A DNA stretch of 1,344 nucleotides, taken from the IMG/VR virus record IMGVR_UViG_2663762948_000003. One strand, given 5' to 3'. A program made the position numbers and the translations under genes. The notes beneath the pieces were generated by a model, which worked only from the letters and a program-made list of their open reading frames with translations, ran no database searches and was not told the DNA's origin. Of the stretch, positions 1 to 1,344 are shown one piece after another (positions within the stretch are counted from its first letter, which is position 1; every line of letters starts with the position of its first letter). Origin of the DNA: a virus (taxonomy: Duplodnaviria; Heunggongvirae; Uroviricota; Caudoviricetes).

Positions 1-480
1 TTCTTCCTCCGTTGCAATTTCCAGATCTGCAGCATCCTGAAGCGGCGCAATATGCTCACTGGCTACCTGCATCAGGCTGTTTTTTGTTTCTTCTGCCTCC
101 CGGATCCGGAACAGTTTTTCTGCTTCCGTATCCTTCACCCAGGCTGTGCCGTTCCACTTCTGATATTCCCCTCCCGGCGACAACCAGGTAACATTTTCCG
201 GTAACGGACCGAGTTCAGAAATAAATAACGCGTCGCCGGAAGCCACGTCATAAACCGTTTTACCCCGATGGTCTTCAACGAGATGCCACGATGCCTCATC
301 ACTGTTGAAAACAGCCACGAAGTCTGCCGGAATATCTGGTGGTGCAATATCGGTACTGTTTGCTGGCAGACCTGTATGAGGCGGAATATATGCGTCACCT
401 TCACCAATAAATTCATTAGTTCCGGCCAGCAGATTATAAATTTTTATGGTCCGTGCTTGTTCACTCATTCTGAATGCCAT
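1..480 (-). CDS. tfa: Tail fibre assembly protein Tfa, N-terminal 160 codons; the 3' end lies beyond position 1
   Basis: My own translation of the minus strand from the ATG at 480..478 gives [160 protein letters not shown], open for all 160 codons to the window edge. This is near-identical to lambda Tfa as I recall it. It is absent from the supplied ORF track, apparently because it has no stop inside the window. A GAGG Shine-Dalgarno sits 8 nt upstream, and the start overlaps the upstream stop (TAATG). Confidence 0.88.
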
Positions 481-493
481 TATGCAAGCCTCA
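478..493 (-). promoter_or_regulatory. tfa ribosome-binding site and stop/start overlap (TAATG)
   Basis: The minus strand reads GTGAGGCTTGCATAATGGCA. GAGG is at 492..489 with an 8-nt spacer; the TAA stop of the upstream ORF (482..480) shares one base with the tfa ATG (480..478). Confidence 0.55.
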
Positions 494-1133
494 CAATATA
501 GTTAAATGCGATGTTTTTGACGGTGTTTTCCGCGTTACCCGCAGCGTTAACGGTGATGGTGTGTCCATGTGAGCCAATCGCAACGGAGTGCGTATGAGCA
601 CCAATATCCACCTCAACCGGATCGAAGGCTTCACCGGTCATGGTGTATTTGCCCTTAAGCACGGCAGAAACTGCCTGCATCTCTTCGACCTGAGCAATGG
701 CCAGCTCTTCGTCACGCATGTTCTGCATGATGATGCGACGGCGGCGGTAAACAGTTGTTGATTGAGTCTCTTTGGTCATTCGCCCTCCTGAGAGACGGGA
801 TTTACGTGCATCCAGTGCATCACGGATGACGGTGATCGCATCGGTGCTGTTAACAAGTTCATCAGCCAGTCCGGCATCAATGGCCTCCTGACCGCTGTAC
901 ACTGCAGCCTCGGTAGCCTTCCAGCGTTCGAATATCTTCACTCGATTAACACCAAGCGCTCGCTGATCAACCGCGCCACCTTCATCTGTGACACGCTGAA
1001 CATCGATGTTCGGGCGCTCTTTCAAAGCCCAGAATGCTTCAGTGATTAATATCGTCGCCTGCTCCTGTGTCATTCCTGGTCGACATATCCAGGCATCCAG
1101 AGCCTCACGAGCCTGTTCAGGAGTGATTTTCAT
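480..1133 (-). CDS. Mosaic ORF (217 aa): in-frame fusion of an unassigned N-terminus with fragments resembling protease C/scaffold Nu3, major capsid protein E and the side tail fibre tip; probably a deletion-scarred remnant, function unknown
   Basis: Intact ORF from ATG 1133..1131 to TAA 482..480 (track protein MKITPEQ...NYIVRLA). Residues 74-128 carry the S49-peptidase-like GLADELV motif followed by the Nu3-type start [10 protein letters not shown]. Residues 129-176 match a lambda E internal segment as recalled. Residues 177-217 carry HxH repeats and the ...[18 protein letters not shown] ending typical of lambda-type Stf. It is too short to hold a protease catalytic domain or a capsid fold. 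Confidence 0.6.
483..605 (-). other. Segment 4 of the mosaic ORF: side tail fibre (Stf) C-terminal tip-like domain
   Basis: [41 protein letters not shown] has HxH motifs and the characteristic C-terminal ending of lambda-type side tail fibres. It sits directly upstream of tfa, as stf does in lambda. Confidence 0.65.
606..749 (-). other. Segment 3 of the mosaic ORF: major capsid protein E internal fragment-like
   Basis: [48 protein letters not shown] matches an internal stretch of lambda gpE as recalled (...[54 protein letters not shown]...). Confidence 0.6.
750..914 (-). other. Segment 2 of the mosaic ORF: protease C C-terminal region / Nu3 N-terminus-like
   Basis: [55 protein letters not shown] corresponds to the end of the lambda C region that precedes and includes the internal Nu3 start. 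Recalled from memory; about one substitution (I for M) against my recollection. Confidence 0.65.
777..789 (-). promoter_or_regulatory. Shine-Dalgarno (AGGAGG) plus in-frame ATG: retained Nu3-type internal translation start inside the mosaic ORF
   Basis: The minus strand reads CAGGAGGGCGAATGACCAAAGAG. AGGAGG is at 789..784 and ATG at 779..777 (Met119 of the 217-aa ORF). In lambda, Nu3 is made from an internal in-frame start within C. Confidence 0.5.
915..1133 (-). other. Segment 1 of the mosaic ORF: unassigned 73-aa N-terminal region
   Basis: [73 protein letters not shown]. It does not match the lambda C N-terminus or any lambda protein I can recall. It is preceded by a G-rich stretch (GGGCGGGGCGG) that may act as a weak ribosome-binding site. 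Confidence 0.4.
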
Positions 1134-1344
1134 TGTTCAACCGCCCCGCCCGCTTCGTCTTACGATATTCATCATAAACTTTGGGATCATACTGAAGCTC
1201 CCCGCCAGATGCCTCCTGTAGACGCATCGCGCGACCTTCAGGAACCAGTATCCCCCAAGCAGCAACACTTGCCAGCCTCACTCCTGCGGCATTGGCAAGC
1301 TTTGTTTTGCTGCCAAAAAAAGTAATTGCGTCAACTTTAAGCAT
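1117..1344 (-). CDS. 3' portion of a hypothetical protein, probably phage-derived; the 5' end may lie beyond the window
   Basis: Track ORF ...[19 protein letters not shown] with stop TGA at 1119..1117. It overlaps the downstream start (1133) by 17 nt in a different frame, a typical coupled phage gene arrangement. The ATG at 1344..1342 is only the first Met inside the window; the frame may stay open upstream. I do not recognise it as the lambda B, A, W or Nu1 C-terminus. Confidence 0.4.

Follow-up and report, generated by a model that had tools for sequence, protein, structure and literature searches.

A single 217-residue open reading frame (ORF) with an ATG start, found by ORF listing at positions 480 to 1133 on the minus strand of the 1,344-nucleotide stretch of DNA analysed here (the window), is very probably a non-functional deletion scar, that is, a fused pseudogene, in a Qin-type lambdoid cryptic prophage of Escherichia coli or a close relative. 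We establish the composition, breakpoints, frames and colinearity of this fusion ORF, the independent occurrence of one of its joins and the lack of full-length relatives; the absence of function is what we infer. An earlier note on this DNA had offered three readings: a multiply scarred prophage remnant, a domain-shuffled protein under selection, and an assembly or construct chimera. Colinear segments, less-deleted relatives and microhomology at the joins bear out the first. The second fares poorly, as the fusion ORF is a singleton, keeps no complete domain and has an in-frame state within neutral expectation. A chimera is excluded for one of the three joins, which was seen on at least ten independent contigs, and is made unlikely for the other two.

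Segments and joins of the fusion ORF

To place the window against its parents, we relied on blastn alignments. Positions 910-1344 correspond to dicC and the 5′ end of ydaT in the Qin-type prophage of CFSAN064036 (99.8% identity), 749-918 to lambda 5203-5372 (C/Nu3, 98.8%), 601-750 to lambda 6449-6598 (E, 99.3%) and 1-612 to lambda 21841-22452 (the 3′ end of stf, and tfa, 95.3%), the last being 99% identical to other stf-tfa copies. The four segments of the fusion ORF are 93-100% identical to their parents in amino acid sequence, and each stands in its parental frame (Table 1). The in-frame fusion of C/Nu3, E and Stf pieces that the earlier note had described was thus confirmed almost to the base by the alignments and the residue map. 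Its junctions (914/915, 749/750 and 605/606) coincide with the crossovers we found, and its bounds for the E piece (129-176) and the Stf piece (177-217) held, although the C piece begins at residue 73 and not 74. The N-terminal 73 residues, which had been called unassigned, proved to be residues 1-72 of a YdaT-family gene product, encoded next after dicC in the normal arrangement; the matching protein, WP_000705355.1, is a 173-residue 'toxin YdaT family protein'. Segment 2 comprises the tail of the S49 domain and the start of the scaffold region. Segment 4 agrees at 41 of 41 positions with Stf residues 983-1023 of phage mEp460_ev081 and at 38 of 41 with lambda.

All three joins show microhomology of 2-3 bp, a length typical of illegitimate recombination. 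At J3, the parental stf reads GTCGGTAT/TGGTGCT (here and below, a slash marks the crossover). In lambda coordinates, J2 removed 1,077 bp (the remainder of C/Nu3, D and the 5′ end of E) and J3 removed about 15.2 kb, in agreement with the gaps of 1-2 kb and more than 10 kb estimated in the earlier note. The loss at J1 is estimated at about 23 kb. Together the three deletions amount to about 39 kb, collapsed to a 654-bp open frame.

The order and strand of the segments are those of an intact Qin-type prophage (dicC, ydaT, ... Nu1-A-B-C-D-E ... stf-tfa-pin). CFSAN064036 encodes dicC (20001), ydaT (20212), nohA (38497) and then the terminase on a single strand. The dicC of the window matches a gene annotated in that genome as 'Cro/CI family transcriptional regulator' at 99.8% identity, and the 17-nt overlap between the dicC-type gene and the start of the fusion ORF is identical to the overlap with ydaT there. 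At the other end, the tfa ATG overlaps the stop codon of the fusion ORF as TAATG at window position 480. The earlier note had described both flanking genes as coupled to the fusion ORF. The tfa portion is 97-99.8% identical to tfaQ and tfa copies. The window carries the hallmark of Qin-type immunity, dicC with an overlapping ydaT-family gene. In other strains, partial versions of the window lie at the Qin locus (nohA...tfaQ-pinQ-ydfK-ydfJ′). Among 189 strains, Qin ranges in size from 11 to 97 kb (PMC6379469). Rfam, promoter and terminator scans returned nothing bearing on the fusion ORF.

Table 1. Features of the window, listed in the direction of transcription.
Feature	Position	Strand	Evidence
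dicC-type Cro gene, intact, 75 aa, upstream of the fusion ORF	1117..1344	minus	Pfam P22_Cro 4.9e-12
Segment 1: YdaT-family (CII-position) codons 1-72, native start codon	914..1133	minus	72/72 residues identical to WP_000705355.1; DNA 99.8%
J1: ydaT to C	914..915	minus	Crossover inside shared TA; three-way alignment with both parents
Segment 2: lambda gpC 263-318 (Nu3 25-80), ORF residues 73-128	749..915	minus	54/56 residues; DNA 98.8%
J2: C to E	749..750	minus	Crossover inside shared TT; three-way alignment with both parents
Segment 3: lambda major capsid protein gpE 106-153, ORF residues 129-176	604..750	minus	48/48 residues; DNA 99.3%
J3: E to Stf	604..606	minus	Crossover inside shared TAT
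Segment 4: last 41 side tail fibre (Stf) codons, His-box tip, plus stop; ORF residues 177-217	480..606	minus	
tfa (tail fibre assembly), first 160 codons, cut by the window end	1..480	minus	Pfam Caudo_TAP 7.5e-23

Occurrence of the joins elsewhere

Of the right end expected of a Qin-type prophage (stf-tfaQ, then pinQ-ydfK, beside ydfJ′), the window shows the stf tip and part of tfa, and it stops inside tfa, short of where pinQ and ydfJ′ would lie. J3, just upstream, recurred as an exact 39-mer at six loci on at least ten contigs from independent assemblies. These lie in prophage remnants at three chromosomal sites, including the DLP12 and att-lambda sites; J3 is an old and widespread scar. The junction strings of J1 and J2 each gave 0 matches in 5,426 complete E. 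coli genomes, in genome contigs (one genome per species for about 100,000 species), in IMG/VR viral contigs and in JGI metagenome contigs. None of the 5,426 genomes covered at least 80% of the window at one place, and the exact 217-residue product was absent from about 15 billion protein sequences. A search for full-length homologues found none, the best homologue covering 66%, and no widespread family of the same architecture, which the earlier note had considered, came to light. Judged from these searches, the whole fusion ORF appears to be a strain-specific singleton.

We considered whether J1, J2 or both might be artefacts of mis-assembly, of a chimeric read or amplicon, or of a laboratory construct. 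The lack of either string in the collections just listed is compatible with this. Each of the four parents also has several copies in E. coli genomes (a median of 3 places in each), and assemblers do err in such a setting. Assembly chimeras, however, form across long shared repeats, whereas the parents share only 2 bp at J1 and at J2. The segments of the fusion ORF also stand in the order and orientation found in a single colinear prophage, with every join a simple deletion; the adjoining J3, a join of the same type, is independently confirmed; and, on inspection, the joins were free of linker, restriction-site and vector sequence. An artefact is excluded at J3, and we find it very unlikely that J1 or J2 arose in this way.

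On the deletion-scar reading, the ancestor would have carried dicC, ydaT, replication genes, Q, lysis genes, Nu1-A-W-B-C-D-E, tail genes and stf-tfa next to pin, all on one strand, and would have lost about 39 kb through three illegitimate deletions at 2-3 bp of microhomology. J3, running from E codon 153 to Stf codon -41, would be the oldest, having reached this lineage by descent, or by copying through recombination, from a scar in circulation in the prophage remnants of E. coli. J2 (C codon 318 to E codon 106) and J1 (ydaT codon 72 to C codon 263) would be private to this lineage, with a presumptive order between the two. The frame would have been kept at the three joins by chance. Because all three joins keep the parental frame, the fusion ORF would have borrowed its start codon and dicC overlap from ydaT and its stop codon and TAATG overlap with tfa from stf. 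The dicC gene, the fusion ORF and tfa presumably now form one early-right transcript.

Domain content, reading frame and deletion endpoints

No segment keeps a complete domain, and the C, E and Stf pieces (56, 48 and 41 residues) are not autonomous domains. Of the 439 residues of gpC, the fusion ORF retains only 263-318, and the S49 domain, which when complete includes the catalytic serine region, is incomplete: the Pfam Peptidase_S49 profile aligned over positions 116-151 of 154 only, with 24.0 bits against a cut-off of 24.9. The HK97-like capsid fold (PF03864, about 330 residues) is incomplete as well, with Phage_cap_E profile positions 93-152 of 329 aligned at 19.1 bits against a cut-off of 22.9; segment 3 matches chain residues 103-159 of PDB 7sj5/7vi9. 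The T4 gp37 tip (PDB 2xgf) is an intertwined trimer. Segment 4 matches the C-terminal 44 residues of gp37 in this structure (1.1e-16, 39 of 44 identical), and of the trimeric Stf/gp37 shaft and tip with several His-box repeats it provides the last 41 residues only, compared with 242 residues in the 2xgf tip fragment. The YdaT-family profile PF06254 had no match on the fusion ORF in Pfam; on the intact protein P0034 it matches residues 59-131. Tetramerization and DNA binding by YdaT require the complete POU-like domain (approximately residues 1-96) and helix α6, and YdaT cut at residue 96, which has lost α6, stays monomeric and fails to bind DNA (PMC9986795). The fusion ORF has residues 1-72 only, without the full POU-like domain and without α6. 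AlphaFold modelling of the fusion ORF gave a mean pLDDT of 47.6, a pTM of 0.30 and 0 residues at or above 70 from single-sequence input, which cannot prove non-folding; this predicted model, uninformative alone, may lend weak support to the deletion-scar reading.

If each join had a 1/3 chance of falling in frame, three out of three would have P = 0.037. On the same basis, P = 0.045 for the joins into stf compared across strains, where five of seven independent cases are in frame, among them K-12 stfQ and a 1,247-residue TerL::Stf ORF of strain JX2. These counts, together with the retained native start and native stop/restart overlap, would fit an open frame under selection, either because the chimera is functional or because translation to the stf stop drives the coupled (TAATG) tfa and avoids polarity. 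However, among short identical strings between co-oriented lambda structural genes, we found a proportion of 0.40-0.50, not 0.33, to agree in codon phase. This bias of microhomology, a result that may be of wider use, raises the neutral in-frame expectation for deletion scars and makes three in-frame joins unsurprising. Under a phase-aware null, P becomes 0.06-0.09 for the three joins and 0.10-0.15 for the five of seven stf joins, and the neutral bias thus removes the significance. Selection is further opposed by the singleton status of the fusion ORF, by the loss of every whole domain, by the low-confidence fold prediction and by the natural scars of strains 2452 and P377, which are out of frame while tfaQ is still intact. 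We give selection on the open frame very little credence.

The endpoints of the deletions raised a separate question, which concerns mechanism only. The joins might reflect site preference, with breaks or end-processing favouring GG(N)TA(T)-like strings, or with older junctions re-used as endpoints. The stf 'tip' endpoint GTCGGTAT/T is common to the E join (window and 21EVA) and the Nu3 join (HL15), and the stf 'mid' endpoint GGTCGGGTA/A is common to K-12 stfQ and strain P377; mEp460_ev081 was taken as the parental stf, as K-12 Rac stfR does not cover the 'mid' site. In addition, the E endpoints of P377 and J3 agree within 1 nt, J1 joins AAGGCTA/T to GCTGGATA/C, and J3 is spread over remnants at three chromosomal sites. 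This endpoint pattern is nonetheless post hoc, and the GGNTA background is about 1 per 260 nt. The motif is absent from J2 and from the Nu1-to-B join of 21EVA, the A-to-C join of HL15 and the TerL-to-Stf join of JX2, and by eye the endpoints are unlike invertase crossover sites. Shared endpoints are also explicable by descent from one ancestral scar combined with homologous exchange between prophages, which has been demonstrated for Qin stf-tfa (PMC3945230). On balance, we consider site preference unlikely.

Two specific candidates were considered. For a GG(N)TA(T) deletion hotspot, an idea that we did not adopt, we mapped five more joins, three of which lacked the motif; in the essD-to-C join of P377 and the D-to-Stf join of 23AR1101, a GG(N)TA(T)-like string arises only across the join. 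Invertase sites of the hix/gix/cix consensus span 26 bp with AAACC..GGTTT half sites. An origin of the joins through a Pin, Gin, Cin or Hin invertase was dismissed on comparison by eye with this consensus, since pix/gix-like half sites were absent at every join. Re-use of deletion endpoints across strains is a minor unexplained point. Some endpoints and the whole scar J3 recur across strains and prophage sites, which is possibly useful more widely. A broader proposal, that decay of lambdoid structural modules is non-random, with re-use of a few preferred endpoints beside GG(N)TA(T)-like strings or at older junctions, and a tfa frame kept above the neutral level as Tfa or read-through matters to the host, seems to us decidedly unlikely; if it were true, the triple in-frame scar would be an extreme product of directed, selected trimming.

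Relation to other decay states of Qin

Returning to the deletion-scar reading, the segments are colinear with and near-identical to one ancestral genome, they are joined by simple low-homology deletions, and their architecture is unconserved elsewhere, which are the marks of a pseudogene. Annotation pipelines would label the fusion ORF as such. It is nonetheless a tidy illustration of how phage genome can collapse: the open frame has the look of a 'new' multi-domain protein, by which gene callers and surveys of domain architecture could be misled.

The less-deleted intermediates that the earlier note had suggested looking for do exist. In 21EVA and its relatives, a 194-residue 'capsid protein' (P0001) consists of E(1-153)::Stf41. 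It sits at the Qin locus upstream of tfaQ-pinQ and shares J3 with the window down to the exact 39-mer. In contrast to the window, 21EVA keeps intact C, D and the first 105 E codons and is without J1 and J2. The two differ at 12 of 750 shared bases; 21EVA is such a less-deleted intermediate. In HL15 and about 10 other genomes, a Nu3::Stf41 pseudogene (P0004, 182 residues, 'S49 family peptidase, partial') carries a C/Nu3 piece in frame with Stf41 upstream of tfaQ at the Qin locus, as in the Stf41-tfa arrangement of the window. It differs in joining Nu3 directly to Stf via a 6-bp CGGTAT microhomology, with no E piece and with terminase A′ upstream. A portal-to-E-to-Stf41 arrangement was also found (P0027). 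Strain 2452, which has rspA′, E′ and Stf joined out of frame, was ruled out as a J3 carrier, its E-to-Stf join being a different one.

The parental families of the fusion ORF are well known. Residues 1-72 belong to the same family as YdaT of CP-933P (PDB 8bt1), and segments 2-4 derive from the families of lambda gpC/Nu3, gpE, Stf and the T4 gp37 tip, with 93-100% amino acid identity to lambda. Within K-12 Qin, YdfX (b1568) resembles the fusion ORF in being a truncated member of the YdaT family that overlaps the preceding dicC by 17 nt. K-12 stfQ (b1547, formerly ydfN) is an in-frame deletion scar directly upstream of tfaQ, at the locus and position of the fusion ORF, and shares with it an identical stop/start overlap with tfaQ and an identical Stf C terminus. 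Terminase gene A supplied its first three codons, V-N-I (GTGAATATA), onto which the final 317 codons of stf are fused. Thus, stfQ has one join (A to stf), 317 Stf residues and nohA upstream, whereas the window has three joins, 41 Stf residues and additional ydaT, C/Nu3 and E pieces, with dicC upstream because the whole late region is gone. Compared with these systems, the fusion ORF would be an ordinary scar, another allele in the well-known Qin decay series rather than a new kind of protein.

Parentage of the 217-residue reading frame

Comparing the window by blastn with lambda and with fetched E. coli loci resolved it into four blocks, of which the stf-tfa block matched other stf-tfa copies at up to 99.8% identity. 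All four ORF segments are read in their parental frame. Therefore the earlier note, which had described a fusion of C/Nu3, E and Stf pieces, was right about the coordinates of the ORF, its segment assignments and the distances between the parental regions, as the blastn map, the residue map and the frames agree. It had begun the C/Nu3 segment at residue 74, one residue too late, and had left the N-terminus, here identified as YdaT, unassigned. Solved structures concur, with ORF residues 126-182 resembling lambda gpE and 174-217 the C-terminus of the T4 gp37 tip.

Features of the window and of the 217-residue ORF
Feature	Position	Strand	Detail
Cro-type gene, 75 aa	1117-1344	minus	Pfam P22_Cro 4.9e-12
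Fusion ORF, 217 aa	480-1133	minus	ATG 17 nt within Cro gene
tfa (tail fibre assembly), first 160 codons	1-480	minus	Caudo_TAP 7.5e-23
Rfam IS009 (RF02111) match	1-137	minus	E = 2.9e-37
dicC and ydaT 5' end block	910-1344		Qin-type prophage of CFSAN064036, blastn 99.8%
Gene C with nested Nu3 block	749-918		lambda 5203-5372, blastn 98.8%
Gene E block	601-750		lambda 6449-6598, blastn 99.3%
stf/orf-314 3' end and tfa block	1-612		lambda 21841-22452, blastn 95.3%
YdaT segment	ORF 1-72		YdaT 1-72, 72/72 identical
C/Nu3 segment	ORF 73-128		gpC 263-318 = Nu3 25-80, 54/56 identical
E segment	ORF 129-176		gpE 106-153, 48/48 identical
Stf segment	ORF 177-217		last 41 Stf residues, 41/41 vs phage mEp460_ev081, 38/41 vs lambda
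J1 crossover (ydaT-C)	914-915		shared TA
J2 crossover (C-E)	749-750		shared TT
J3 crossover (E-Stf)	604-606		shared TAT

Crossovers were placed by three-way alignment with both parents. In lambda coordinates, the J2 deletion is 1,077 bp and the J3 deletion about 15.2 kb; that at J1 is about 23 kb, as estimated from lambda coordinates projected onto the CFSAN064036 prophage. On a single strand, this prophage carries dicC, ydaT, replication genes, relBE, hokD, Q, lysis genes, csp genes, nohA and terminase. The window segments match this intact arrangement in order and orientation and, given this agreement, three simple deletions in one colinear ancestor explain the structure. The suggestion of a structural module collapsed by internal deletions is thus borne out by colinear, same-strand segments relative to an intact Qin-type prophage.

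The ORF listing gave three genes, all co-oriented, and the ORF stop overlaps the tfa ATG as TAATG. A scan of the window turned up nothing resembling a terminator and no meaningful promoter-like sequence. Any effect of the scar is most likely an incidental, regulatory one: tfa now lies directly behind dicC, in what we infer to be the early-right transcription unit. The IS009 match (152 bits against a gathering score of 117) falls within the coding sequence of tfa and is truncated at the window end; this 'RNA family' thus corresponds to a conserved part of the tfa gene.

Occurrence of the junctions in other genomes

The J3 39-mer was found verbatim in six loci on at least 10 contigs (NCBI, Logan and ENA assemblies), including P0027, a portal-E-Stf variant. 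Because these contigs are independent, J3 is real and predates the window's lineage, and an artefact can be excluded for this join. Remnants bearing J3 occupy three chromosomal sites: Qin, on the ydfJ side (L012 and L014); DLP12, at appY-ompT (L013); and att-lambda, beside lambda-type int-exo-bet-gam-kil (L017). This suggests that resident prophages pass the scar on through homologous exchange, or that it forms repeatedly. The window and 21EVA (L001 7247-7996) have J3 in common, but of the 750 bases flanking it 12 differ (1.6%), across E', the Stf tip and tfa. Such divergence exceeds that expected of a recent common scar, implying that the junction is old or that patches were later exchanged with other tfa copies.

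Neither J1, J2 nor the full ORF was found outside the window. In none of 5,426 complete genomes was the window, or a J1+J2 probe, covered to 80% or more at any place, the two junction strings were absent from three contig collections, and the exact protein was absent from approximately 15 billion sequences, the best homologue covering 66% of it. The chimera that the earlier note had raised is unlikely at these two joins: their parents have just 2 bp in common per join, not the long repeats through which assemblers connect sequences; neither has foreign linker sequence; and both are deletions that keep order and strand, as does the confirmed J3.

Reading frame, product and shared endpoints

The earlier note had also considered a shuffled protein under selection. 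Three in-frame joins at one in three each give P = 0.037. Of 7 independent joins into stf in the strains compared, 5 are in frame (K-12, J3, HL15, 23AR1101 and JX2, against P377 and 2452), giving P = 0.045. Identical k-mers between different, co-oriented lambda structural genes from nu1 to tfa (L004 191-22557) were in the same codon phase at fractions of 0.40, 0.43, 0.46 and 0.50 for k = 3 to 6 and in 54% of cases for k = 7, against 33% expected. Deletions between genes at microhomologies should therefore preserve the frame in more than a third of cases; at p = 0.40-0.45, the probabilities become 0.06-0.09 for the three joins and 0.10-0.15 for 5 of 7. Both out-of-frame scars are followed by an intact tfaQ. 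Selection is not needed to account for the in-frame joins.

Nothing points to any activity of the 217-residue product, which is most likely non-functional. Its S49 match spans only the last 36 domain positions and its capsid match 60 of 329, both below the Pfam cut-off. A YdaT(1-96) construct without the tetramerisation helix is a monomer unable to bind DNA (PMC9986795), and the YdaT piece here is shorter still. Of Stf there remain only the last 41 residues, from a tip that is an intertwined trimer. An AlphaFold model, weak evidence given its single-sequence input, was of low confidence throughout (mean pLDDT 47.6, pTM 0.30).

Several scars share endpoints (L010 21213 and 22040; L003 7298 and 8129; L002 6373; the stfQ start in L008; and J3 and J1 in the window). 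The stf 'tip' site (GTCGGTAT, then T) is common to the E join of the window and 21EVA and to the Nu3 join of HL15, which has 6-bp microhomology; the 'mid' site (GGTCGGGTA, then A) is common to the gene A join of K-12 and the E join of P377, and the E endpoints of P377 and J3 agree within 1 nt. Each later form follows from an earlier one if a deletion ended exactly at the older junction. The sharing could reflect descent with homologous exchange between prophages, documented for Qin stf-tfa (PMC3945230), or a preference for certain sites in breakage or rejoining. A GG(N)TA(T)-like string precedes many crossovers, and at J1 a partner ending in GGCTA was joined to one ending in GGATA. Of five further joins, three lacked the motif, and at the P377 essD-C and 23AR1101 D-Stf joins a motif-like string is created only by the joining itself. 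At about 1 per 260 nt the motif is frequent, and the pattern is post hoc.

Relatives of the scar in the Qin locus

Over its right-hand two thirds, the window corresponds to the Qin locus (nohA ... tfaQ-pinQ-ydfK-ynfT-ydfJ'), present in many E. coli strains in varied states of decay. Less-deleted intermediates, sought in related genomes, were found: 21EVA retains partial nohA and portal genes and intact C and D, with E(1-153) joined to the window's 41 Stf codons (P0001, 194 aa). In HL15 and about ten other genomes a Nu3-Stf41 fusion comes after A', and in strain 2452 rspA' is joined to a longer E fragment and then, out of frame, to Stf. JX2 carries a 1,247-aa TerL::Stf ORF directly upstream of tfaQ (L007 384-4127), comprising about 400 large terminase codons and about 850 side tail fibre codons in frame, and annotated 'terminase gpA endonuclease subunit'.

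Two public records look like E. coli/lambda contamination or mislabelling: 'Campylobacter phage CJLB-4' (MW057783.1, 48,361 bp), 95.4% identical to lambda stf-tfa within about 80 bp of lambda coordinates, and a 'Rhodococcus qingshengii' protein (P0048), which shares 93% identity with the N-terminus of E. coli YdaT.

Phage mEp460_ev081 (L010, LR597641.1) is a living relative of the ancestor and looks like a living counterpart of the Qin cryptic prophage. It shares Cro/YdaT, dicB, Stf, Tfa, Pin and YdfK-like genes with the Qin type but has an HK97-type rather than a lambda-type head module. Its Qin-type gene set also includes int/xis, a repressor, rem, Q, lysis genes, csp and gnsB, and its pin-like gene encodes a serine recombinase. 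In K-12, stfQ opens with GTG AAT ATA, the three initial codons of terminase gene A, and continues in frame with the last 317 stf codons, and ydfX is a truncated ydaT-family gene of 96 aa; both are annotated as ordinary CDSs in MG1655 (L008 4886-5848 and 17347-17637). The 217-residue ORF belongs with K-12 stfQ in kind: it is a real scar, left by three deletions in a Qin-type cryptic prophage and specific to its strain.
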